Positions 16,141-36,128 are shown, numbered from the stretch's first letter. The stretch is DNA of 64,000 nucleotides from Alistipes sp. (GCA_017399485.1 JAFQCA010000010.1:47478-111477), one strand, 5' to 3'. The notes: generated from the sequence alone by a model not told the origin. Numbers and translations: made by a program.

Positions 16141-17220
16141 TCACTTTAATTTCAGCGACTTAGGCTTAAGCAGATGACTCCACACCTGCACCACGAAAGT
16201 TTTAGCGAGGCTCTCGTTATATACAATCTGATGTTTCCAACGATTAGCCCACCAACGGCGAAACATAAAACTCCAAGACTTTAGATAACCCGCATTCTTG
16301 GGTGTTGGTTCAGAAAACTCTGGTCGCAAAATTTCATTCCACACTCGCTCCTCAAGTTGCGGGTTACGTTCAAATTGCGGGACACAACTACTCGGAAGGC
16401 TCAACCTGTCGATGCAAATAGCATTTAGACAATTCAAGAACCTATGCATATTCGTTTGCGCAGCAATCTCGCCCAATGCCTTCCAATCAATTTGTTGTGC
16501 ATACTTCTCGACAAAATATCGCCAATCCAACAGATGTCGTATCACAATGCGTTCAGCCGCAAAATGGGCTGCCGAATGACGTAATAGAAATAACGCATTG
16601 AAATCAGGCGACGGAAGATAAACAGTCTGGCCATCTACTTCAACTTGCTCCAATGGTTGATTAGTGAGTTGCTGTAGTCGTTGCTCAATTTTACGATTTG
16701 AGAGATGAGCGTGGATATTTAGAAAATCATAGTGATTCTCGACCATCACACCATCAACATAAAAGACCGTATGATGATGTTTGGTGTCGTCAATCACGAT
16801 ATTCAGATGCTCCTGCAGAAGTCTGTCAGCACTTTGTTGTGCGCTACATCGCTTGATGGTGCCATCGGGCATTTGTCGCTCCTCAAAGAGCCAAATATCA
16901 ACATCACTACAAGGTCGGTGATTCGGCGCAGGATAATTAAGACTCAAGCCATAACCCTTGAGAATCATCATCTTGATGTTATGAGAAACGAACAATTTGA
17001 CTAATTTTGCAATAACACCTCTCTGCCGAACATATTTCTTCTCAATCTGCTCGGTTGATAACGCCCACTGGAGTTTTAAGGCCTTCGGAGGTTGATTCTC
17101 TGTCGGCAGTATGCCATCCCGAATATCCTGCTGGATATAATCCCACGTGATAGCCGCCACATTATGCGTTGCGGATATAGAGTATAACGACGGCCAATCT
17201 GTATTTTCTATTCTGTGCAT
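16141..17220 (-). CDS. Uncharacterised nucleotidyltransferase (NTP_transf_5-like)
   Basis: ILKGYGLSLNYP..RPCSDVDIW (pol-beta-type G..DxD), VENHYDF, LRHSAAHF and RHLLDW. Confidence 0.85.
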   Translation of the reverse strand: MHRIENTDWPSLYSISATHNVAAITWDYIQQDIRDGILPTENQPPKALKLQWALSTEQIEKKYVRQRGVIAKLVKLFVSHNIKMMILKGYGLSLNYPAPNHRPCSDVDIWLFEERQMPDGTIKRCSAQQSADRLLQEHLNIVIDDTKHHHTVFYVDGVMVENHYDFLNIHAHLSNRKIEQRLQQLTNQPLEQVEVDGQTVYLPSPDFNALFLLRHSAAHFAAERIVIRHLLDWRYFVEKYAQQIDWKALGEIAAQTNMHRFLNCLNAICIDRLSLPSSCVPQFERNPQLEERVWNEILRPEFSEPTPKNAGYLKSWSFMFRRWWANRWKHQIVYNESLAKTFVVQVWSHLLKPKSLKLK

Positions 17221-17225
17221 ATTTC

Positions 17226-17263
17226 AAAAAAAATGCCGAAGCAACAATGTTGTTGTTTCGGCA
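17226..17263 (-). terminator. Intrinsic terminator after ugd at the end of the polysaccharide operon
   Basis: Minus strand TGCCGAAACAACAACATTGTTGCTTCGGCA (about 12-13 bp stem, one mismatch) followed by T8. Confidence 0.8.
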
Positions 17264-17347
17264 ATAAAGATAATAATTTATCAGGATAATTCAAAAAATG
17301 CATATGAGTTGTTAAAGATTAAACGGCATCTTAACTATCATCGCACA

Positions 17348-18667
17348 TTAATCTCGACGGAAAACATCTCTTGTGTAAACCTTATCGGCCACATCATCCA
17401 GGCAAGAGTCATAGCGATTGGCTATAATCGCATCACACGCCCCCTTGAACTCCGCAAGGTCATTTACCACCCTGCTACCAAAGAAGGTTGAGCCATCCTC
17501 AAGAGTTGGCTCGTATATCACCACCGTAGCACCTTTTGCCTTGATACGTTTCATAACACCCTGAATTGCACTTTGGCGGAAATTGTCAGAGTTAGCCTTC
17601 ATAGTCAAACGATACACTCCCACGACACACTCCTTCTCGGCAGCGCCTGCAAACTCATTATTATTAGAATAATTGTAATATCCCGCCTTGGCCAAAACTT
17701 GGTCCGCAATAAAATCTTTTCGAGTTCTGTTGCTCTCCACAATGGCACTCATCATATTCTGAGGCACATCATTGTAGTTCGCCAGCAATTGTTTTGTATC
17801 CTTTGGCAAGCAATAACCGCCATAACCAAACGAGGGATTATTGTAGTGAGTACCGATACGAGGGTCCAGACCTATACCATTAATAATCGCCTGCGTATCC
17901 AGCCCTTTCACCTCAGCATAAGTATCCAACTCATTGAAATACGACACTCGAAGCGCAAGGTAGGTATTGGCAAACAACTTCACAGCCTCAGCCTCTTTCA
18001 AACCCATAAACAGAGTGGGCACATTCTCTTTAATCGCCCCCTCCTGAAGAAGTGCTGCAAATGTATGGGCCGCCTCCTTAAGATGATTGCCCGCTATAGC
18101 ACAAATAGCCTTATTCTCCTCGTCCAAAGAATCAATCATCTTAGGATAACCAACAATAATACGAGAGGGGTATAAATTATCATACAGCGCCATACTCTCT
18201 CTAAGAAACTCTGGAGAGAACAGCAAGCGGAACTTTCTAGTAACATCCCATCCATTCTCCTTGAACTTGCGCGCATACTTCACATACAGAGAGCGACAAT
18301 ATCCAACTGGAATAGTACTTTTAATAATCATTGTTGCCTCTGGATTTACCTCCAAGACCAAATCAATAACATCCTCGATGTGATGAGTATCAAAGAAGTT
18401 CTTCTGCGAGTCGTAATTCGTAGGTGCTGCAATAATCACGAACTCCGCATCTCTATATGCAGAGGCGCCGTCCAACGTTGCTACCAAATCCAACTTCTTC
18501 TCCGCAAAAAACTTTTCTATATATTCATCCTGAATAGGACTCTCTCGACGATTAATCTTCTCAACCTTTTCGGGAATAACATCCACAGCCGTCACACTAT
18601 GATGCTGCGCCAAAAGCGTGGCCATCGAAAGCCCCACATAACCTGTACCTGCTACTGCTATTTTCAT
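17348..18667 (-). CDS. ugd: UDP-glucose 6-dehydrogenase (copy 1)
   Basis: [40 protein letters not shown] (catalytic Cys) and C-terminal YTRDVFRRD. Confidence 0.95.
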
Positions 18668-18686
18668 AAAACCTATTTTAATCCAA

Positions 18687-19946
18687 TTATTTTACTATAG
18701 CCTCCTTAATACAGTCAACGATATAACGGACATCGTCATCTGTAACATAAGGACCTGCAGGCAAACACATACCAACCTTGAATATCGCCTCCGATACTCC
18801 ATTCACATAAGCCGGAGCGCTCTTATATACGGGCTGCTTATGCATAGGCTTCCATACAGGACGAGCCTCAATCTTCTTCTCAAGCATAAATACTCGAAGA
18901 GCCTCAACATTATCATTTGGCTGACAATCAGTTGTAGCACAATCTACAGCGTGAATAACACCTGCAGCACCTCCCACGGCAGTCTTTATAACCTCTTTGT
19001 AAGCATTTTCCTGTCCCTTAATCTCAAGCGATGGCTCCAATGTTATCGTACACAACCAAAAATTAGAATCATATTTACCTGTTGCTGGCTGCTTATGCAC
19101 AGTGACACCCTCAACATCAGCCAACAACGTCTCATACATTGCTTGTACATGCTTGTGATGGTCAATATGAGCCTGTGCGACAGTCATCTGACCTCTACCA
19201 ATACCTGCACATATATTACTCATACGATAATTATAGCCAATAGCCTCGTGTTGATAATACGGATATGCTTCTCTTGCCTGTGTGGCATACCACATAATAT
19301 TGTTCTTACTTTCAGAGTCTCTACAAATCAAAGCACCACCTCCTGATGTTGTAATCATCTTGTTTCCATTGAAAGAAAGAACTCCATATTTACCAAAAGT
19401 TCCCAACACACGACCATTAAACTTCGAGCCAAAGCCCTCAGCAGCATCTTCAATAACAGGAATATCATATCGATGAGCCACTTCCATAATTCTCTCACAA
19501 TCATAAGGCATACCATAAAGAGCCACCGGCACAATAGCTTTAGGCTTCTTACCGGTTTTAGCAATACGATCCTTAATAGCCTCCTCCAACAACACGGGGT
19601 CCATATTCCAGGTATCGGGTTCAGAATCAACAAATACAGGAGTAGCCCCAAGATAAGTTATAGGATGCGACGAAGCACAGAATGTAAAACTCTGCACAAG
19701 CACCTCATCACCAGGCCCCACACCACAAGCCAACAAAGCAAGATGTACAGCAGCAGTACCGGCTGATAAAGCAACCACTTCGTGATTACCACCAACAAAC
19801 TGTTTAAGTTCTTCCTCAAAGCCATTAACATTTGGGCCTAATGGCACCACCCAATTGGTATCAAAAGCCTCCTTTACATATTTTTGTTCAATACCCTCTT
19901 CGCTCATATGAGCGAGGCAGAGGTAAATCGTTTTTCTGTCTGACAT
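18687..19946 (-). CDS. DegT/DnrJ/EryC1/StrS sugar aminotransferase (PglE/WcfR-like)
   Basis: [34 protein letters not shown] (PLP Lys), GYNYRMSN and ARPVWKPMH. Confidence 0.92.
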
Positions 19947-19958
19947 AGTATAATAATA

Positions 19959-21209
19959 TTATTTACCTTGTAGATAATCAATCAAATATTCTGTTGTAAA
20001 CTCTTTTAGATTTCTTCCTTTATCACGGATTTCACAACCCATAATATTATTGTATTTATCAATCATCTCAGTCACAATATCACACTCAACATCTAGCATT
20101 TTAGCCAAAGCCTCAAAAGGAACAAGGCCTGTAGGAATATCTTCAGTTAAATAACGCAATTGAGGAACCGAGTTTTTTTGATATGTTGGGGTTCGTCCTA
20201 TAGCAGAACTCAAAGATTCCCCTTCAATTCGTTCCACTCCATATGTTAGGTCTAACCAATGTTGTGCAGAAAAAACACAGTTATTTAGATATTCCATAAA
20301 AAGTTTGCGTATTTTTCTCAATTCTTCAACTTCATCTTCATGCTCTGCCTCTAATGCTCGTAACCCATTTGTAAGTTTTCGCCAAACATCCTCTCTCTCA
20401 TCTCCTATTAAGCCAAAAACTTTAATTCCAAGCCTTTTAGCTATATTCAATCTTATTTGATCAATTGCTTCTAGCACTTCTCCAACTTCTGGTCTAGATG
20501 CAATACCATCCATATAAAATGAGAAAACTAATCCCTCCCGTTGTTTCCTATTGATTTCATCATAATTAAGTAAATACGTTGCACAATGAAATATCGCACC
20601 AATATTATTTAAAGAAGTTAGTGCTGGTATTTTGGATAATGATGCTTGAGGAAATAGCTCTTTTAGAAGTTTTATATGGTTGGGATTAAAATCTCCTTCC
20701 AACGATGATATCCAAGTTCGCTTACGCCTTTTAATTAATGACACCTCAGGCTTAGGGGCTTTACAAGAGTATGGACAAGTAGAAAAACATACTATTGGAT
20801 ATCTCTCTCCTAGAATTTTCCACAAATAAGGAGAAGCAACAGAACGAGAAGGTGATAATATAATAGGTATTCTACGTCGCCATATTCCTGCATCACATAA
20901 CGCTTGAACTGATTCTTCTTGATAAATAGATGGTAAAGCGATTATAACAACATCTACATTTTGTACAAAATAACACAAATCATTGGTAACACAACTTTCT
21001 TGTGTTAATGGGACAAATCTACTTTCTTCATTATTTTTATTAGTTGGGCGCTCTAAATATATTCCTCCTAACCTATGTATTGCATCTAATACTCTATTAC
21101 CATTTTCTGAATTTCGCGCATATCCCCAAGTATTGTACCCTCTTGATAGATAGTCTGCAAAAAAAGCTCTACCACTTTGTGAGCCCAACCCAAACACTCC
21201 GATTTTCAT
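19959..21209 (-). CDS. NAD(P)-dependent opine (octopine/nopaline) dehydrogenase family protein
   Basis: N-terminal Rossmann GVFGLGSQSG, DVVIIALPS, SLNNIGAIFH, RYLTEDIPTGLVP and GRNL match the octopine-DH family pattern. Confidence 0.85.
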   Translation of the reverse strand: MKIGVFGLGSQSGRAFFADYLSRGYNTWGYARNSENGNRVLDAIHRLGGIYLERPTNKNNEESRFVPLTQESCVTNDLCYFVQNVDVVIIALPSIYQEESVQALCDAGIWRRRIPIILSPSRSVASPYLWKILGERYPIVCFSTCPYSCKAPKPEVSLIKRRKRTWISSLEGDFNPNHIKLLKELFPQASLSKIPALTSLNNIGAIFHCATYLLNYDEINRKQREGLVFSFYMDGIASRPEVGEVLEAIDQIRLNIAKRLGIKVFGLIGDEREDVWRKLTNGLRALEAEHEDEVEELRKIRKLFMEYLNNCVFSAQHWLDLTYGVERIEGESLSSAIGRTPTYQKNSVPQLRYLTEDIPTGLVPFEALAKMLDVECDIVTEMIDKYNNIMGCEIRDKGRNLKEFTTEYLIDYLQGK

Positions 21210-21252
21210 AGTATTTATTATATATAACTAAATATTATCTAAATAATATTAT

Positions 21253-22098
21253 TTACACAATAACTTGAACATAATCACAATATGATTGTTTCCTATCCAT
21301 TTCTGATAAGTTCCTCATTTCTACGTCAGATAGTTCAAAATCAAAAACATTATAATTATCCTCTATATGCGCCTTACTACTTGAACTTGGAATTACAACT
21401 ATGTCTCGCTGAATTATCCATCGAATTATAATCTGAGCTACAGATTTATTATGAGTTTTAGCGATTGATAACAATTTATCATTATTAAATAATTCTTTAA
21501 ACATCTCACCTTTTGTAAAAGGAGAAAATGCTTGAACCTGAATATTATGCTCTTGACAATACTGAACCACTCTTTTTTGCTGGTTTAAAAGATGTAATTC
21601 TATTTGGTTTATCATTGGATATACTCCGTAAGTTTGCTTTATCAATTCTAAATGAACAACATCACAATTACAAACACCAATCGCCCGAACTAATCCTCTA
21701 TTATAAAGCTCTAGCAACTGACCATACGCTTTTATATAATTCTTAAAGGGGGAGTGTAATAAATACAAATCAATTCTATCAGTTCCTAATCTTTTACAAG
21801 ATTCTTTATACGCACGTTTTACAGATTTGGCATTTAAATAAAGGAATCGCTTATTACCATTAAAACGTATTGCATCAATTTTTGATGTTATAAATAATTC
21901 GTCCTTATTAACATTAAATTCTCTTATTGCATCTCCCAAATCCCATTCATTAGCATATCGATTTGCCGTATCATACAAACGACAACCTTCTTCATATGAG
22001 TACTTAAATGCAATTTTTAAATCATTCCCTTTCAATGGCCAAGTTCCAAAACCAAGTATCGGCATTTTAACGCCATTAATTAGAGTCACAAACTTCAT
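21253..22098 (-). CDS. Aldo/keto reductase (AKR5/DkgA-like)
   Basis: MPILGFGTW, YDTANRY (Asp/Tyr), LFITSK, DLYLLH, RAIGVCN and INQIELH. Confidence 0.93.
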   Translation of the reverse strand: MKFVTLINGVKMPILGFGTWPLKGNDLKIAFKYSYEEGCRLYDTANRYANEWDLGDAIREFNVNKDELFITSKIDAIRFNGNKRFLYLNAKSVKRAYKESCKRLGTDRIDLYLLHSPFKNYIKAYGQLLELYNRGLVRAIGVCNCDVVHLELIKQTYGVYPMINQIELHLLNQQKRVVQYCQEHNIQVQAFSPFTKGEMFKELFNNDKLLSIAKTHNKSVAQIIIRWIIQRDIVVIPSSSSKAHIEDNYNVFDFELSDVEMRNLSEMDRKQSYCDYVQVIV

Positions 22099-22100
22099 AA

Positions 22101-23030
22101 TTATAAATATGATTTTAGGATTTGATACTTGGGGACGCCATCACACACTTGTGTACATTGGCCAGGGCAAAAATTACCCTCAATAAGTTCAAAGCCGTTT
22201 GGAGTAATCGCCACATCCCAACCCACATATCGCGCATTAGGCATAACATAGGCGACCTTCATTATATACTCCTCTAGTTGCTCAATATACGGCACCTTAA
22301 AACCTACAAATTTTATATTACTTTGAGGATGAACATCGCACCACCAACCTTGTGGATTATATCCATCCTTATCAACCTTTCCTGTTTCCATATCAATGTG
22401 ACACATTACACCGCCACTATGACAGTTACTAACAATAGTATGCTTCATTCCTACCATTAACAAAACATTTTGGAGATGAAAATCACCTTTGCTATCTATA
22501 CAGGTTTCCACTCGCAGCGTATGCAATGACGAAGGATTTAGCGCTCTTATATCTGGATGATTTACAAGCACTTCCTCTATCATATAGTGATTACCTTTTT
22601 TTACATCTGCTAAAATAGCATCTACTTCTGAAATATCAATTACTCTAACCCCGATTCCCCATGTTGATGAGGCCGGTTTTATAACAACTTTACCGTGCTT
22701 ATTAATAAATGTTCTAATTTGTTCAGGTGATACATCCTCAGTCCATATCCACTCACGTTTCACAAATGCAAAGAATCTCTTACTAAATAAATTTTTCTTT
22801 GCTAATATATTACGTGCTTCATCATCGTAAAAATTCTTATAAAACAAGCGCTTATTTCCAGATGTTACATATTCTTTTTTCTCCGCATGTGTTTTACTAT
22901 AAAACGCCATTGAGATATAGTCATCAGCTAATGCACCATACTTATAAATAGAATAAATCATATCCAGAAAATAGTATAATTTTTTCTTATCCCTTAGGGG
23001 GGGGGTGTTTAAGTGCTTGTTTACAGGCAC
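22101..23030 (-). CDS. Sugar-transfer-associated ATP-grasp protein; likely true start ATG 23064 is out of frame across a C9 tract
   Basis: VVIKPASSTWGIGV, IEEVLVNHPDIRALNPSSLHTLRV, HPQSNIKFVGFKVP and YVGWDVAITPNGFELIEGN fit the ATPgrasp_ST type. See the finding on the homopolymer. Confidence 0.85.
   Translation of the reverse strand: MPVNKHLNTPPLRDKKKLYYFLDMIYSIYKYGALADDYISMAFYSKTHAEKKEYVTSGNKRLFYKNFYDDEARNILAKKNLFSKRFFAFVKREWIWTEDVSPEQIRTFINKHGKVVIKPASSTWGIGVRVIDISEVDAILADVKKGNHYMIEEVLVNHPDIRALNPSSLHTLRVETCIDSKGDFHLQNVLLMVGMKHTIVSNCHSGGVMCHIDMETGKVDKDGYNPQGWWCDVHPQSNIKFVGFKVPYIEQLEEYIMKVAYVMPNARYVGWDVAITPNGFELIEGNFCPGQCTQVCDGVPKYQILKSYL
22997..23005 (-). repeat. C9 homopolymer (G9 on + strand) in the 5' end of the ATP-grasp gene
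   Basis: Directly counted: 9 G at 22997-23005. Removing one fuses the ATG-23064 frame with the main ORF. Confidence 0.85.
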
Positions 23031-23071
23031 TTATTTCTTTTACAATTCTATAAATTACATTCATTGTATTT

Positions 23072-24904
23072 TTATTTTATATTAAACAATCTCTCTTTTT
23101 CACTCAAGATTTGTGGATTATCATAATTGTCAACTATGTTTATCATTCCATATCTCATCGGTTTGGTTAGAAAGTCTCCTTTATACTTGGCATTAATGAT
23201 ACCTGGGGCAGTCATAAGTTTCTGCTCAATAGAAGATGATATCACATTTTCATCTCCAAGATATGGGGCCATAATTTCCAACGGACAAGGCTCATACTGA
23301 GGATGAAGTTTGGCAATCTGGTTCAGAAGAAAAGCGCTCTCATTAATCAACCAATCACGGCGTTCTTTTACTAAAGGCACATTCACCTCTTTCATTATAT
23401 CTTCTTTATTCTGACGGAATATACGAACTGCACGACGGATTAGACGCGAACTATCGATTATGTCAGCGGGACGAGCTGCATAGTTAGCTTCGCAATAACT
23501 TACAATATGGATAATATGAGGATTCATACACATCTGAAGGAAAGTAGAACGAGCCAACTGCCATTTAGCCAAATCCATATCAACACTCAACGATTCGATA
23601 CCTGTACGCGTCTCTCGGAATATAGATGCCGGAATTTTTCTTCCCATTGATATTCTATGAGCCATTTCAATACCAGCAAACATCTTAGCAAGATCTGCAT
23701 AATCTCCCGTTTCCTTTGGCTTATTGAATTGCATCTGGAGAACCATATTTTGCACACCACACATAGTCATTACAGCACTAATTAAAGCATAACTTGTTAC
23801 GATAATTGTATCGTGCGCCCAACGACTGCTCCACTGATTCGGATCATTCATCTCTACTGGGATACCATTCCTCGCCAACTCACGCACACATGCAAAGTGC
23901 TCCTTAATACTATCACGAACCATAGCAGGGCCACGGCCATCCAACTCATTAAACCAATAGAGAGGGACTGCTTGATGAACACCACGAAGCATACCAGCAT
24001 CTAAGCATTGTCTTACAAATCCTACAAGGTCTCTTACATGACAATAAGGCTTTACGCCAGGAAAGTTTCCATAACGGGAAGCCTGATAAAGAGCCACCAA
24101 ATCATTGAAATCCTTGTATGGAACACCTCCATCATTTTTGAATTTTTTGAACATCTCTGGATAACCGAAGTAGCGCTGACTAAGGTCGGATGAACCAAGA
24201 GAAATTTCATCTAGTACTCGAGCATTCGCCAACTCGCGTATGCCATCTACCGTTGGCTGAATATTTGGAGCAGGAATACCAAAGTGGCTTCTCAATACAG
24301 GAAACTCGGCTTCTCGAATACGAGTCACATAGTCATTGCAGGCTTCTATTGAAGGTACCGGTAAAGGTGGTTCATTCTTATAATCATCATTTCGAACTGC
24401 CTCACTTGCTAACTGATCAAAAAGTTCAATACCCTTAGGAACTAATTCATCATAAATTTGCTTGATAATCTGCTCGCGATTGATATCTATTTCAAAGAAA
24501 TCAACAGTTTCTGTTATGCGTTCTAATATCTTTGTGGAATTCTCACATAAAATAACCTGCAATGGAAGTTCATTAACCTTGCTCTTAAGTAGCTTAATTG
24601 TATTAGGAAGACCTGCAAACTGAATCTTAACATCATCATCAGGTTTGATGAGACCAGAAGTGTAAAAGTAATTAACCACCTTAAAAAGCTCTTGGACTGC
24701 CACATTCTCATTTTGGCGATAACTTAAGCCTATAAAACGGGGTTTATATTTATCAATAGCCTCATATAAGGCAGTATAATCAAGCGATGGAGGCAGGATA
24801 AGACTGCCCACCTTACCCAAGGTTGCAATCTTCGAGGCATTATGCATGCCTTCTGTATGTGGATCATTAGCAAGCGATGTTGCCACAAAAAATCTATTCC
24901 TCAT
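23072..24904 (-). CDS. Cobalamin-binding enzyme (N-terminal B12 Rossmann domain plus large putative TIM-barrel domain), function unknown
   Basis: SLANDPHTEG (DxHxxG), followed by FIGLSYR and QFAG in the flavodoxin-like B12 fold. The C-terminal domain has RSHFG, ISLGSSD, AVPLYWFNELDGRG, PVEMNDPNQWSSRWAHD and PHIIHIVSYCEA. There is no CxxxCxxC. Confidence 0.82.
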   Translation of the reverse strand: MRNRFFVATSLANDPHTEGMHNASKIATLGKVGSLILPPSLDYTALYEAIDKYKPRFIGLSYRQNENVAVQELFKVVNYFYTSGLIKPDDDVKIQFAGLPNTIKLLKSKVNELPLQVILCENSTKILERITETVDFFEIDINREQIIKQIYDELVPKGIELFDQLASEAVRNDDYKNEPPLPVPSIEACNDYVTRIREAEFPVLRSHFGIPAPNIQPTVDGIRELANARVLDEISLGSSDLSQRYFGYPEMFKKFKNDGGVPYKDFNDLVALYQASRYGNFPGVKPYCHVRDLVGFVRQCLDAGMLRGVHQAVPLYWFNELDGRGPAMVRDSIKEHFACVRELARNGIPVEMNDPNQWSSRWAHDTIIVTSYALISAVMTMCGVQNMVLQMQFNKPKETGDYADLAKMFAGIEMAHRISMGRKIPASIFRETRTGIESLSVDMDLAKWQLARSTFLQMCMNPHIIHIVSYCEANYAARPADIIDSSRLIRRAVRIFRQNKEDIMKEVNVPLVKERRDWLINESAFLLNQIAKLHPQYEPCPLEIMAPYLGDENVISSSIEQKLMTAPGIINAKYKGDFLTKPMRYGMINIVDNYDNPQILSEKERLFNIK

Positions 24905-24907
24905 AAA

Positions 24908-26131
24908 TTATAAGTACATATCACGGTTCAAAATATCATTTCCATTCTCATCTAGTACTTTCAATGTACTGATAGCTTTTTTTACTTTATTATCAAGATC
25001 TATCTGCTCCTTCGCTTCTATAAATATAGAGGCAACTCGATCGCTACTGGATGCTGGTGCATTAACATTCACGCCAAATGGACGAGTCAGAATATATTCT
25101 TTGATTATACCATTCTTGACAAGTTCGTCTAAACCTTCTATAGCCATAAACTTACCACCCGTCAAATAGATATGGCAACGACTATAGCATTTACGCGTAT
25201 TATGAATTTTCACCTCAGGCAGTTCTCCTAGCATAGATTCCAAATTTGCTCTTAGTACATTAAAACCTGTTACGTGTTCTATCGTCTTATACTTAGCTCC
25301 GCCACCTAAACGAGCAGAGAACTCTATTACACGAACATCATGATTATTTATTATTGCCTGAATAAGCAAAGGTGAATTCTTCACCTCGTAAGCTTTTGCA
25401 ATTTTATTGGCAATCTCTATGAGAGTTGTGGAAGTTTTTTCTGATAATACAGGAGGTATAACGCTTTGGTAGATAATCTGGGTACTTTCGTTTACTTGAA
25501 ATTTATTTAATTGGCACCACATAACTTTCTGAGCCTCCCCATTAATCACATAAAAATCTGCACTAATCTCTACCCCTTCATTAAACTCCTCTACAATAAT
25601 AGTATCAGTGAGTGTAAATCGAAAAGCATCCTTAGCAAACTCATTAAGTTCTGCTTCATTCAACACTTTGCGTACACCTTTTGATCCATTTGAATCTACG
25701 GGCTTTACAACAAGCGGATAGTTTAAGCCCTTGGTATCTAATTCATCCTTCGATGTAAATGTCTTAAACTTCGATGTAGGTATATCATTCTCTATCATCA
25801 GTTGTTTCATATACATTTTGTTGGTCAGATTCAACACTTGCTTCTTGCTTAGGCAACAAGGCAGCCCCAATTCTTCCGATACGACAGCCATAGTTAGCAA
25901 AGGTTGATCACCACATGCAGTCATGATATAGTTCACCTCTTCTGCAATAGCAATTTCTTTCACCTTATGCAAGTCCATCGTACTCTCTACGATATGCTTA
26001 TCTGCATATTTAGCAGCTACTACATTTGGCGCAAAATCTATAAGGATCACTTCCACATCCTTAAATTTAGACCTCAATTCCTGAATCAAAGCAGCCTGGT
26101 CATTGCCTCCCGCCAATATCATAATTTTCAT
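24908..26131 (-). CDS. ATP-grasp ligase (carbamoyl-phosphate-synthase/amino-acid-ligase-like)
   Basis: MKIMILAGGNDQ, NKMYMKQLM, YPLVVKPVDSNGSKGV, IVEEFNEGVEISAD and IEFSARLGGG. ATG 26131 is preferred to the track start at 26182. Confidence 0.9.
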   Translation of the reverse strand: MKIMILAGGNDQAALIQELRSKFKDVEVILIDFAPNVVAAKYADKHIVESTMDLHKVKEIAIAEEVNYIMTACGDQPLLTMAVVSEELGLPCCLSKKQVLNLTNKMYMKQLMIENDIPTSKFKTFTSKDELDTKGLNYPLVVKPVDSNGSKGVRKVLNEAELNEFAKDAFRFTLTDTIIVEEFNEGVEISADFYVINGEAQKVMWCQLNKFQVNESTQIIYQSVIPPVLSEKTSTTLIEIANKIAKAYEVKNSPLLIQAIINNHDVRVIEFSARLGGGAKYKTIEHVTGFNVLRANLESMLGELPEVKIHNTRKCYSRCHIYLTGGKFMAIEGLDELVKNGIIKEYILTRPFGVNVNAPASSSDRVASIFIEAKEQIDLDNKVKKAISTLKVLDENGNDILNRDMYL

Positions 26132-26144
26132 ATCTGTATATGTC

Positions 26145-26741
26145 TTAATTATTTCCCGTAAACGGGCCTGTACTAAGTACAATATCCTTTGATTTCAACA
26201 CATTCATTATGGTCATAAATATAATTTTGATATCTAACCACAAAGAACAATGGTCAACATACCATACATCCAGCTCAAATTTTTTTGTCCAACTAATTGC
26301 ATTCCGACCATTGACTTGAGCCCAACCTGTAATTCCTGGACGAACACCATGACGTCGTGCCTGTTCTTTACTATATAGTTCCAAATATTTTGTTAATAAA
26401 GGACGTGGACCTATTAAAGCCATATCCCCCTTTAACACATTAATCAACTGAGGAAGTTCATCAATAGATGTAGAACGGACAAATTTACCTACTTTGGTTA
26501 GACGATTCTCATTGGGCAATAAATTTCCATCTGCATCTCTTTCATCCGTCATACTTTTAAATTTCATCACTTTAAATATTTTACCATCCTTTCCTGGGCG
26601 TTCCTGATAGAAGATAGCCCCAGCTCCTTTATTGGCTATGGTTAGCCATATATAAATAATTAAAAGTATTGGCCAAATAATTAATAACACCGTAAGGGCT
26701 AGACAGAAGTCAATCAATCGTTTAAAAAAATGTTTATACAT
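26145..26741 (-). CDS. Initiating phosphoglycosyl transferase (PglC/WcfS-like, Bac_transf)
   Basis: [45 protein letters not shown] and [14 protein letters not shown]. Confidence 0.93.
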
Positions 26742-26746
26742 AGTTA

Positions 26747-27952
26747 TTAAAAATGTTTCATTATATGATTATAAGTATTCTCAATGAGATAGTTCTCCTT
26801 CATGAATTGGTAACCCATCTCTCCCATTACAGGGATGTCGCTGGCAAGCATCTTGTCCACGGCCTTTGTAAATGCTGCAACATCATTGCTTGGAACATAG
26901 AATCCAAAACCATTCTCTTCGGCAATCGAGCCCGTATCGCAATTTGGGTCTGTGCAAGCAATCACAGGCATCCTATTCTCAAGGTATGACAGCAGACGGC
27001 TTGGGAAGTTAGGGATGGTAAAGCGGTAATCCAAGAATATCAATCCCACCTGACAAGCCTGTACTAGACGGTCGTAATCATCTTTAGGGAGTCCCTTCAT
27101 CACAGTCACAGCCTTTGGCTGACAAGTTTGATACCAGTCCGCCATTTTCTGATAGTAAGTACCACTACCCACCACCACAAAGTGGCAGTCCGCTCTATCC
27201 GCATTAGCCGCCAAGCACTGAATCAAGAATGGGATTCCCTGAGGCACACCCAAGTTACCTCCATAGATAAAAATAGGTTTATCTGTAGGGATATTGTATT
27301 TAGCGAGCACACTCTTATCTGTATTATGTTCAAGGGCAACCAACTCCAATGAATTCGGAGCTATCTCTACTCTAGTTGATGAAATCTCCGGATTGTGTTC
27401 CAACACATAACGCACATTAGCAGGACTCATGCAACCTATGTAATCTGAAAGCGCATATAGTTTCTTTTCCTTAACACGAAAAAACTTGTAAAGCAATCCT
27501 TTCAGACCTGTTTTAGAAAGCATCCCCATATCCACCGCATTCTGAGGAAAGATATCCTTTAAGAGCAGATAGGTTCTTGCTGAAGGGTTATTCTTCTTTA
27601 CATACTCTATCACATTAGGGAAGGTAATAGGAGGAGTGCTATAAAGTATAAGGTCAAAATTAATATTGCTGAAAAATTTCTTTATGGCTCGTTTGTATAA
27701 AAACTCTATTGACACCTGACCTATACCTTTCTCTATCACATTGGTCTTAGTAACATTCAATGTACGCACACCAAGGAGATGTACACCGTTCTGTACTCTC
27801 TCCTCTGTAGGAAGCCCATGCTTACGCTCACGAGGGAACACTATATAGACATCATGTCCTTCTTCTCGGAACTTACGCATCAAATCTGTATAAATTCCTC
27901 TAGCATGAAACTTTTCTATGCCCGAGGACATAGTTAGAAATAGTATGTTCAT
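26747..27952 (-). CDS. GT4 glycosyltransferase, WbuB-like (putative L-FucNAc transferase)
   Basis: [28 protein letters not shown] and NFPSRLLSY. The fnlABC genes are in the same locus. Confidence 0.85.
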
Positions 27953-31471: not shown

Positions 31472-32692
31472 TTAGTTATTATATTCTCGCATAACAGTAT
31501 TATTATCTATTATTATAATCTCCCTGCTACCATTACGATTTGTATCTATACATATTTTTGAATGTTTTGAATTAAATCTTGGATGAAGATCTGTCCTTAA
31601 TTCTCCATTTGAAACAGGTTTCATATAGACCTTAAATAAAGTTTCTTTCTTATCAAAAATACTATCAACCAAATACAAACATTGAAATCCATTTATGTCT
31701 GGATACGTATCGGTTAGTATCATCGTACCTCTATCTACAGATGGATGTCCGTCTTCTTGTAAAGAATGAGGACAGAATGGACTTTTAGTCTTATTATGGA
31801 TATTATATATATAATAATTACATATGGTGGGTCTTGAATAAGATGTACATAATATATTTTCATTATCAAGCCATACATAATGAGAAACTTTATCTTCTAA
31901 TTCTAAAGGTATAATATTCTTAGTATAAATATCATATACAAGCAACGAAGCCTTATGATAGCCATTTATTATCTCAATCCAAAAGAATAAAAACGATTTT
32001 CCATCTGGAGAGAATGATAGATGATTGATATAGCATTTATCATAATCTCTCTTATACTTAATGGCCTTTGCAATCATCTGATATGTTATCTTATCTTTAA
32101 TAATACCAGTAGCAAGATCTATTATGCGAATTGATTCATTATATAAATTATTTGCATTGTATGGAATACATGTATATCCATATCCAGGTCGTAGTAATCC
32201 AAGTCTATCAAAGTTTAGAGTTATACCCAATTGACCATCATGTGAAATGTCATATATAGGAAATTGATAATTTTTAATAATATTACCTTCAGTATCAATA
32301 ATTCGAGAACCATATTTATTTTCTTCAAAAAAATTAAATATGACTCTATCATCATAACCAGGGAACCAACGTAATCGACAACCTTGTTGCCAATTCCAGG
32401 CCTTACTTACAGCGAGAATAGACTCTTGGCTTAAATCGTTACTATCGTTTATGCAAATTTTGACCTCATCTGAATTCTTCTCTTTTTTTATATACAAAAT
32501 TTTATCAATACTATTAAATGGTGAAATATCATAGTACCCAAAAAAAACATCAGACTTACGTTGTTTAATAACTCTATAAATAAGAGTTGTCTCTATTTTG
32601 CCTTGTAAATGTATAAATCTATAAATAGCATGTTTTATTGATTTAATAACAGCCTTTTGTTTTTTTGTAAATATTCGTTTTAAGATATTCAT
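31472..32692 (-). CDS. Beta-propeller protein (TolB/oligogalacturonate-lyase-like)
   Basis: FFGYYDISPF, WNWQQG, INHLSFSPDG, DGHPS, TDTYP and DLHPRF repeats. Confidence 0.6.
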   Translation of the reverse strand: MNILKRIFTKKQKAVIKSIKHAIYRFIHLQGKIETTLIYRVIKQRKSDVFFGYYDISPFNSIDKILYIKKEKNSDEVKICINDSNDLSQESILAVSKAWNWQQGCRLRWFPGYDDRVIFNFFEENKYGSRIIDTEGNIIKNYQFPIYDISHDGQLGITLNFDRLGLLRPGYGYTCIPYNANNLYNESIRIIDLATGIIKDKITYQMIAKAIKYKRDYDKCYINHLSFSPDGKSFLFFWIEIINGYHKASLLVYDIYTKNIIPLELEDKVSHYVWLDNENILCTSYSRPTICNYYIYNIHNKTKSPFCPHSLQEDGHPSVDRGTMILTDTYPDINGFQCLYLVDSIFDKKETLFKVYMKPVSNGELRTDLHPRFNSKHSKICIDTNRNGSREIIIIDNNTVMREYNN

Positions 32693-34819: not shown

Positions 34820-36128
34820 TACTACTGGTGCGATAAATTTTATTAAAATAATTTTTGTTCTTTGACATTTTGGTTTTCGATTGTTGATTGGGTTTCTGTA
34901 AGCAGTTCCCGAATGGGTGTTTTTGCAAATGCAGACACTCCTAAAATGCGAGCGACCTCTGTAATACTGTACGGAGTTTGTAATTCCGCTTTTATCTTTG
35001 CCATCAAGAGGTAAGAGATAATCGCTATCCACAAATGTATGCGTACTGCATTCTCGGAGTAACCCCACATTCGTTTGACGGTCATATTCTGCTTGATCCA
35101 CTTGAAAAACACCTCTATCTGCCAGCGATTACGATAGATATTCGCAATATCTAATGCGCTAATATCCATATTGTTGCTTATAAAGGTTAGTTCCTCGTTG
35201 GTTTCGGCATCGTAATACTGCACTACCCGCAAAGATTTAGGATATAACTGCGATGATTTTGGACCAGTGAGTAACACTAATTGGTCGGCAAGTACGCCTT
35301 CATCATCACTCTTGACACTTTCGATAATGCGATACTGCATTCTAGTTTTGGCTCTTGTAACAAAATATGCTCCAATAGAATCCATTTTGCTCAGTGCTAC
35401 CAAATCCACATACGCTTTATCCATCGTATAGATAGCATTTGGCTCAAATTGGATATAGTCCATAGCATTGCTATCGTGCCAAGTGCCATCTGAAATATGG
35501 ATAATGTCGGTATACTACCTCGCAAGTCAAGCAAAGTGTGCATTTTAACCGCTCCTCGGCTATATTTGCCCGATGCCCACGTAGCAAGATTGATACTTAC
35601 CGAGATAGATGTAGAGTCTAATGCAAAGATTGTATTCTCCAAATCTACCAAAGGTATTTTATCCTTCGTAAATAATGGTCTAACTTGTTCTATCAAGTAG
35701 TAGCCAAAGTCTTGAAAGATGCGATAGTTTCGATTGTCGTTGGCTCGTAAGAGCGTGGAATGGACTACATTCTGCTTAATTCCCAAATGATAGAGATTGT
35801 TTTGATGTGCTTTGAGGCACAAACAAATATCTCTTAACGAGGTGCAGGCAGTAATTTGCCCGAAGATGAGTTGAAGCAGATGGTTGTAAGAGTTAAGACT
35901 CTTTGCGTGAAAGTCTCCTTTGTATCGCTTAACACTCTTTTCAAACTCAAAACGGGGTATAAATTCCACTATTTGAGCGAATACGAACTTGCCCAGATGC
36001 ATAACTTTGAGGTTTTAGCCACAAAATTACCATCAACAATTTCAAATCAAAAAATCAAAGAACGCTTATAACTAATTTATATTTAACAGTTTAACTACTG
36101 CTTAGCAAAATTTATCGCATCAGTAGTC
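34820..36128 (-). mobile_element. IS4-family insertion sequence (~1.31 kb)
   Basis: TIRs actactggtgcgataaatttt (34821-34841) and aaaatttatcgcatcagtagt (36107-36127) match at 20/21. A candidate 9-bp target duplication aattaaaat lies at 34811-34819 and 36129-36137. Confidence 0.85.
34843..36002 (-). pseudogene. IS4 transposase (DUF4372 plus DDE), split by a 1-nt frameshift near 35504
   Basis: ORF 35397-36002 (ALDSTSI, AVKMHTLLDLRGSIPT) and ORF 34843-35463 (MDKAY, YRNRWQIEVFFKWIKQ). Adding one T at ACATTATCC restores ...IPTFIHISDGTWHDSNAMDY. Confidence 0.88.

Follow-up and report, generated by a model that had tools for sequence, protein, structure and literature searches.

In the polysaccharide A (PSA) capsule locus of the Bacteroidales member Bacteroides fragilis, the WcfR/WcfS pair of an aminotransferase and a small initiating transferase handles 2-acetamido-4-amino-2,4,6-trideoxygalactose (AATGal), whose 4-amine is left free, and no acetyltransferase is known to take part. 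Acylation of a UDP-4-amino sugar by an ATP-grasp enzyme is also known, from one system: the UDP-yelosamine system of Bacillus cereus ATCC 14579, which comprises a 4,6-dehydratase, the aminotransferase Pat, the ATP-grasp enzyme Pyl and an adjacent small phosphoglycosyl transferase (PMC11626204; PMC8987622), with Pyl joining an acid other than acetate to the 4-amine of the UDP-sugar through an amide (Hwang et al. 2014, as cited in PMC8987622). In the HS:2 capsule of Campylobacter jejuni, the C-terminal TupA-like amidoligase of Cj1438 performs ATP-grasp amide formation on the carboxylate of glucuronic acid (GlcA) (PMC11800379). Opines also occur in glycans: alanopine is N-linked to 4-amino-4-deoxyquinovose (Qui4N) in Providencia alcalifaciens O35, and carboxyethyl-lysine is carried by galacturonic acid (GalA) in P. 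rustigianii O14 (PMC10609480); our literature search found no paper assigning genes to these two glycan opines. Here we analyzed 64,000 nucleotides from Alistipes sp. (GCA_017399485.1 JAFQCA010000010.1:47478-111477), hereafter the window, in which a module of five genes lies in a capsule locus between a PglC-like initiating enzyme and a PglE/WcfR-like DegT aminotransferase (Table 1). The module encodes an ATP-grasp ligase (AG1), a cobalamin-binding protein (X610), a second ATP-grasp ligase (AGST), an aldo-keto reductase (AKR) and an opine-dehydrogenase-family enzyme (OpDH). On this gene content, we put at about even the chance that the 4-amine of the initiating sugar would be N-acylated by an ATP-grasp enzyme, with a non-acetyl acid in place of acetate.

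The PglF-like dehydratase, the PglC-like initiator and the PglE/WcfR-like aminotransferase were all matched by Pfam on the minus strand where the original prediction had placed them, and every gene of the ATP-grasp/B12/ATP-grasp/AKR/opine-dehydrogenase block was identified between the latter two, as it had described. Its further statement that the locus holds no PglD/NeuD hexapeptide acetyltransferase was borne out by profile searches. Pfam Hexapep has zero matches on the contig of the window. A PglD-like hidden Markov model (HMM), built from neighbors in related genomes, has zero matches in the six-frame translation of the window, and it recovers such genes in the comparator loci. A genome-wide search (95% completeness) likewise gave no PglD_N domain; it did not extend to GNAT-type N-acetyltransferases elsewhere in the genome. 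Elsewhere in the genome, the hexapeptide family is represented by LpxA/LpxD-sized open reading frames (ORFs) and by two non-Lpx proteins, one resembling a gamma-carbonic anhydrase and one, in a housekeeping context, resembling an O-acetyltransferase; all were rejected as PglD candidates, both non-Lpx proteins scoring far under the NeuD/PglB cut-off. A 406-aa ORF of the locus was considered as a hidden acetyltransferase and likewise rejected, since it is soluble and its model resembles a beta-propeller module fused to glycosyltransferases. The Atlas model matches TolB/PD40-like proteins as well as a module that, in Bacillota, is joined to glycosyltransferases of the GT2, GT4 and GT32 families. 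The product of the ORF is probably a glycosyltransferase accessory or carbohydrate-binding propeller.

The gene order around the aminotransferase was compared among 20 loci of the same order with an orthologous aminotransferase (47-67% identity). In seven of the 20, a hexapeptide or PglD-like gene either neighbors the aminotransferase or separates it from PglC, and a clean PglC-acetyltransferase-aminotransferase run is seen in L088 and L090. PglC and the aminotransferase directly adjoin in three, and the remaining loci hold other cassettes (e.g., FemAB-like, PIG-L and short-chain dehydrogenase/reductase genes, or a Schlafen-like insertion). The original prediction that an N-acetyltransferase normally sits here is correct insofar as it is the commonest occupant, but overstated as a norm: the position between PglC and the aminotransferase is a variable tailoring slot, and an acetyltransferase is its commonest tenant, not its rule. 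The module, in turn, is not always located between both genes, as it lies 3' of an adjoining aminotransferase-PglC pair in L010, L033 and L039. A strict slot replacement was rejected, given these three loci and a fourth (L042) that the module shares with a hexapeptide gene.

X610 has no match in Pfam or NCBIfam, even at E<=10; it reaches the thresholds of neither PF02310 nor PF06368, and the latter is without a match anywhere in the genome. When 30 diverse family members were combined into a profile, corrinoid-binding domains were matched at 4e-7, and the His of DxHxxG was aligned. X610 carries the His-on signature D14-x-H16-x-x-G19, and H16, G19, S61 and G98 are at least 90% conserved in the family. 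A chance origin of the DxHxxG motif was rejected on this family-wide conservation and the profile matches to corrinoid domains. The AlphaFold (AF2) model has a pLDDT of 94.3, and its best Foldseek match is GlmE (1cb7_B; 1e-11, TM 0.67), followed by lysine and ornithine aminomutases and methylmalonyl-CoA mutase. Furthermore, hhalign aligned residues 327-605 of X610, the second half of the barrel, to residues 185-443 of GlmE at 88% probability. The glutamate-binding arginine claw of glutamate mutase is formed by R66, R100 and R149, together with E171 and Y181; the X610 family has an invariant set of its own (R205, S235, Y287, D322, E351, D365 and H466). Distant relatives show sub-threshold B12-binding and Met_asp_mut_E matches, and are fused to a GlmL/MutL chaperone or to a RimK/GSH-type ATP-grasp. 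A word-indexed protein search returned 544 relatives, the best 120 of which are 77-100% identical to X610 and almost all nameless. The reading of X610 as a radical-SAM/B12 protein was rejected, since it lacks a radical-SAM match and folds like GlmE. Taken by its modeled structure, X610 is a single-chain adenosylcobalamin-type mutase-like enzyme. The genome encodes a PduO-type adenosyltransferase, a methylmalonyl-CoA-mutase-like enzyme and MetH, thus adenosylcobalamin is expected to be available.

The best Protein Data Bank matches of AG1 are the L-amino acid ligases 3vot (4e-13) and 4wd3, and it matches LAL_C2 weakly (20.6 bits vs. a cut-off of 29.4). L-amino-acid ligases activate an amino-acid carboxylate. 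The listed AG1 ORF begins at TTG 26182; the probable true start is ATG 26131, 14 nt past the PglC stop. OpDH aligns to CENDH (1bg6, 2e-14) and keeps the His of the H-P/H-C motif and the R-x4-D (R-Y-x-x-E-D) positions; by analogy with CENDH and OcDH, we take this His and the Arg/Asp pair to be catalytic. It also bears a charged insertion of ~50 aa, and is 22% identical to the paralogous OpDH of locus L112. AGST is split (22987-23064) at a C9 tract (22997-23005), so that its first ~23 codons and its body lie in different frames. ATG 23064 opens an N-terminal frame of 25 codons, whose product aligns with the N-termini of six orthologues, the body runs in the +1 frame from GTG 23030, and eight C's instead of nine would join both frames. 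The split could be explained either by phase variation or by a homopolymer assembly error. From zero to four AGST paralogues are found per related locus, and AKR is present in just about half of the Bacteroidota-type loci.

The survey of X610 found it in 44 species genomes, and the neighbor counts refer to the fetched flanking DNA. Its hosts are Bacteroidales, Rikenellaceae, Flavobacteriales, Tissierellia, Clostridia, Bacillaceae, Chloroflexota, Thermotogae, Myxococcota and one archaeal metagenome-assembled genome (MAG). An OpDH orthologue occurs with X610 in 38 of the 44 loci, and five of the six exceptions are at contig ends. OpDH is an obligate partner of X610. An AG1-type ligase stands beside the OpDH-X610 pair in 20 of the 44 loci, and these carry a DegT aminotransferase (14 loci), an adjacent PglC (11), one to four AGST paralogues (13) and a UDP-glucose 6-dehydrogenase (Ugd; just three). 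PglC orthologues with 57-76% identity lie directly upstream of AG1 in 11 related loci, and the aminotransferase often touches the module (L013-16, L024, L036, L042 and L045).

A GT-PglC-AG1-X610-AGST-AKR-(PGA_cap)-OpDH-AT-PF14907 block, where GT and AT denote glycosyltransferase and aminotransferase (16141-27952 in the window), is common to the Rikenellaceae loci L014-L016 at 48-76% protein identity. Since the block is shared at this identity across families, its transfer as a unit is indicated. The PF14907 gene is found 3' of the aminotransferase in Rikenellaceae loci as well, and its orthologues in the Rikenellaceae/Alistipes/Tidjanibacter MAG loci (L014-L016, L020) are 30-50% identical to that of the window. 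In these four loci, AKR and OpDH are separated by a PGA_cap (CapA-like) gene that has no counterpart in the window; in the window, an additional Ugd separates the aminotransferase from the PF14907 gene. Other module loci add a Mur-ligase-like gene (L017), WbqC-family genes beside the aminotransferase (L019, L026) or ATPgrasp_Ter (L026), and L009 contains LicD, a cytidylyltransferase and a class I/II aminotransferase. The extra genes of these loci (L017, L019, L026, L009) suggest multi-amide or phospho-substituted side chains.

A sample of 400 further species of the order yielded no close X610 orthologue, but six of them carry paralogues with 29-34% identity. Of the five paralogue contexts (L110-L114, in G205, G034, G088, G219 and G214), all have an OpDH-like gene and four an AG1-like gene, and three of these four carry polysaccharide genes. 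The L112 operon reads RmlA-RmlB-aminotransferase-ATP-grasp-226aa-OpDH-mutase-Wzx. Operons of this type indicate that the triad of AG1, OpDH and X610 follows 4-amino-6-deoxy sugar synthesis, whichever nucleotide carries the sugar. An alanine-racemase-like gene is added in L114, and two sulfotransferases are found in L111. In Bacillales (L134-L137), ATP-grasps like L-amino acid ligases (25-28% identity to AG1) occur in PglF-AT-PglC-(ATP-grasp)x1-2 operons without the OpDH-X610 pair, and ATP-grasp tailoring beside small phosphoglycosyl transferases appears to be a wider theme. Candidate Pyl orthologues from B. cereus-sized Bacillales genomes (L130-L132) have no aminotransferase or PglC in context and were not used.

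The identities of the genes, the fold of X610, the missing acetyltransferase and the conserved linkage are direct readings. N-acylation of the sugar 4-amine is favored for three reasons: an amino-acid-ligase-type ATP-grasp is repeatedly coupled to genes that create a sugar 4-amine; the triad is linked to DegT aminotransferases and 4,6-dehydratases in both Bacteroidota and Bacillota; and Pyl offers a precedent in UDP-yelosamine synthesis, as cited in PMC11626204 and PMC8987622. In such a pathway, the PglF-like dehydratase would supply a 4-keto-6-deoxy sugar and, with the DegT aminotransferase, UDP-2-acetamido-4-amino-2,4,6-trideoxyhexose, with which the PglC-like enzyme would start the repeat unit on undecaprenyl phosphate. 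In place of PglD-type N-acetylation, AG1 would convert a carboxylate to its acyl phosphate and then, in a Pyl-like manner, transfer the acyl group to the sugar 4-amine. OpDH and X610 would supply or remodel the acid, the former by reductive condensation of a 2-oxo acid with an amine and the latter by a radical 1,2-rearrangement of a glutamate-like skeleton, and their product may be a branched, poly-carboxylated opine-type amino acid. Speculatively, an opine derived from 2-oxoglutarate would be an N-substituted glutamate, which X610 with a changed pocket could convert into an N-substituted 3-methylaspartate. AGST may add a second amide bond, and AKR may reduce a carbonyl. This fuller scheme, in which an adenosylcobalamin mutase and OpDH build an undescribed branched poly-carboxylated amino acid that the ATP-grasps attach to the 4-amine of the repeat-starting sugar, is offered tentatively.

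Several observations weigh against N-acylation of the initiating sugar by the module. About 23 loci have a bare OpDH-X610 pair, with no homologue of AG1, the aminotransferase or PglC in the fetched flanks; the neighbors of five such pairs (L028, L029, L032, L040 and L049) are all unrelated by Pfam, and no AG1 orthologue was found in a search of the whole Halolactibacillus genome. As these bare pairs lack a ligase or sugar genes, the OpDH-X610 product would be a free metabolite first, and its link to a sugar would be one of synteny only. The aminotransferases linked to the module belong to different DegT subfamilies (26-34% vs. 71-75% identity), thus the acceptor sugar is not uniform. A hexapeptide transferase lies beside the module in L042 (hexapeptide-AT-AG1-X610). 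The half of the X610 barrel that is expected to hold the arginine claw has no sequence alignment to GlmE, and the substrate is not readable from it. AG1 is likened to Pyl by gene set and logic, not by sequence. In this assembly, AGST is frameshifted, and a split insertion sequence (IS) breaks the capsule operon upstream of the module. The chemistry of each step, the sequence in which the steps occur and the nature of the acid are our deductions.

The module may instead decorate a uronic acid: an ATP-grasp, most likely AGST, would activate the C6 carboxylate of GlcA or GalA and amidate it with the OpDH/X610 product, the 4-amine staying free or being handled by another enzyme. Such a reaction would parallel carboxyethyl-lysine on GalA in P. 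rustigianii O14 and the C-terminal amidoligase of Cj1438. The locus encodes two Ugd enzymes, one directly after the aminotransferase and a possible uronic acid source, together with a GalE-like epimerase. PF14397 comprises "sugar-transfer associated" ATP-grasps, a TupA-like ATP-grasp has been shown to amidate GlcA (PMC11800379), and O-antigens with amino-acid and opine amides of uronic acids are known (PMC10609480). Across the AG1-bearing loci, however, Ugd is near the module in three of 20, as against 14 of 20 for the aminotransferase, and AGST is missing from several loci with AG1, OpDH and X610 (L026, L036, L047). AG1 itself resembles amino-acid-activating ligases, not TupA-like enzymes. 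We therefore regard uronic acid decoration as unlikely.

A free 4-amine, giving an AATGal-like zwitterionic sugar, with the five genes making a separate metabolite or a peptide-like side chain elsewhere, seems quite unlikely. The three of 20 loci in which PglC and the aminotransferase adjoin, with no acyl-transfer gene between them, make free-amine sugars plausible in this order. The OpDH-X610 pair occurs without any sugar genes in many phyla, and the PGA_cap, Mur-ligase-like and further ATP-grasp genes of some related loci suggest oligo-amide chains. The triad, on the other hand, is closely and repeatedly embedded within or beside dehydratase, aminotransferase and PglC genes, in two phyla and in two paralogous families, a pattern that is difficult to account for unless a substrate is shared. 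A sugar that is simply di-N-acetylbacillosamine or related to it, acetylated by an unlinked enzyme such as a GNAT, with the module a passenger or inactive in this strain, is highly doubtful: the incomplete genome (95%), the GNAT-family enzymes elsewhere that were not surveyed, the frameshifted AGST and the split IS inside the operon would allow it, but no PglD_N was found in the genome, the hexapeptide proteins that it does encode have housekeeping neighborhoods, the four module genes apart from AGST are intact, and the 77-90% identity of X610 to metagenomic proteins (among the best 120 of 544) indicates strong purifying selection.

The capsule locus is of the Wzx/Wzy type and is transcribed on the minus strand as one operon of 32 kb (48219 to 16141), in a Bacteroidales-type genome of 2.3 Mb. 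Its 5' part encodes a UpxY/NusG-like protein, the PglF/WbpM-type dehydratase, Ugd, the GalE-like epimerase, RmlA, RmlC, RmlD and RmlB; its middle part FnlA, FnlB, FnlC, the split IS, Wzx, the Pfam-less 406-aa protein, and glycosyltransferases with an EpsG-type polymerase; and its 3' part PglC, the five-gene module, the DegT aminotransferase, the second Ugd and the PF14907 protein. The GC content is 0.27-0.39 over 20-34 kb of the window and ~0.47 in the flanks, as is common in mosaic capsule loci. Scanned for inverted repeats, the promoter region yielded just a weak 14-nt pair. The nearest NCBIfam models of the dehydratase are PseB and FnlA, both under cut-off. The aminotransferase is 52% identical, over its full length, to an orthologue located beside PglC-PglD. 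Compared with ordinary PglE-like orthologues (381 aa), it has an insertion of ~35 aa near residues 310-345, which is common to the Rikenellaceae copies and to a 67%-identical gene in G150 that lies away from the module. The IS (DUF4372 and DDE_Tnp_1; 34843-36002) is located inside the operon between FnlC and Wzx, and its transposase is present as two overlapping ORFs. The transposase is frameshifted or degraded, and the IS could have a polar effect on genes in the 3' half of the locus, the module among them.

Table 1. Coordinates in the window of the module genes and of other features of the capsule locus.
Feature	Coordinates	Strand	Evidence
X610, single-chain cobalamin-binding, glutamate-mutase-like enzyme, 610 aa	23072..24904	-	family profile, AF2 model, Foldseek, hhalign
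AG1, L-amino-acid-ligase-like ATP-grasp	24908..26131	-	ATP-grasp_4 and GARS_A above cut-off
AGST, ATPgrasp_ST ("sugar-transfer associated") ligase	22101..23064	-	PF14397 2.2e-39; body 22101-23030
AKR, DkgA-like	21253..22098	-	PF00248 1e-47; DkgA model 209 bits, under cut-off
OpDH, opine-dehydrogenase-family NAD(P)H enzyme, 416 aa	19959..21209	-	PF02317 4.8e-26, 92 bits vs. cut-off 30
PglC-like small polyprenyl-phosphate phosphoglycosyl transferase (initiating enzyme), 198 aa	26145..26741	-	PF02397 2.9e-64, full profile
PglE/WcfR-like DegT aminotransferase, 419 aa	18687..19946	-	PF01041 6.5e-91; LegC-family model 337 bits, under cut-off
PglF/WbpM-type membrane-anchored UDP-GlcNAc 4,6-dehydratase, 643 aa	45629..47560	-	PF02719 3e-119 and N-terminal CoA_binding_3
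Second UDP-glucose 6-dehydrogenase of the locus	17348..18667	-	UDPG_MGDP_dh N, central and C domains; PRK15057 524 bits
PF14907 nucleotidyltransferase-like protein, final operon gene	16141..17220	-	PF14907 4.9e-42
Soluble 406-aa protein, sole Pfam-less ORF of the locus	31472-32692	-	Atlas model pTM 0.87

Our literature search found no description of the mutase/OpDH pair, nor of a B12 mutase in capsule synthesis, and a B12 mutase and OpDH feeding such a ligase are not described in the literature searched. If the fuller scheme is true, it would add a substituent class new to glycans and give a B12 carbon-skeleton mutase its first role in surface-polysaccharide synthesis. The capsule chemistry of gut Bacteroidales, which governs phage sensitivity, immune modulation and strain competition, would then depend on B12 supply, tying capsule type to corrinoid availability in the gut. 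Zwitterionic polysaccharides depend on the state of the 4-amine, free or modified; with a B12-dependent acid in place of acetate, the first sugar of each repeat would differ in both charge and epitope. The ATP-grasp and aminotransferase context points to a candidate acceptor for the OpDH-X610 product, and a testable function is now proposed for an enzyme pair that is widespread from Bacteroidota to Thermotogae and one archaeal MAG.

The module can be compared with known systems at the level of its single enzymes. Like glutamate mutase GlmS/GlmE (1cb7/1ccw), X610 combines a His-on type B12-binding domain with a GlmE-type barrel and has relatives fused to GlmL/MutL; unlike it, X610 has both domains in one chain, the S domain leading, and its constant partner is OpDH, not methylaspartase. 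As would be the case here, Cj1438 uses an ATP-grasp to form an amide on a capsule sugar; Cj1438, however, is TupA-like and activates the sugar's own carboxylate, whereas AG1 is like L-amino acid ligases and AGST belongs to PF14397. 4-Amino sugars acylated with opine-type groups occur naturally (PMC10609480).

At the level of the locus, the PglF-, PglE- and PglC-like genes resemble the PglF-PglE-PglD-PglC set of Campylobacter and Neisseria, and PglC-PglD-aminotransferase runs are seen in the related Bacteroidales loci L086, L088 and L090. Unlike in that bacillosamine pathway, PglD was not found here in the window or the genome. In contrast to B. fragilis PSA, five extra genes part the aminotransferase from the initiating transferase. 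The genes of the yelosamine operon (UDP-GlcNAc 4,6-dehydratase, DegT aminotransferase, ATP-grasp, small PglC-type transferase) form a set that is found in one operon here too. The Pyl system needs just 2-oxoglutarate from central metabolism, whereas the ligase of this locus travels with a B12 mutase-like enzyme, OpDH, a second ATP-grasp and AKR.

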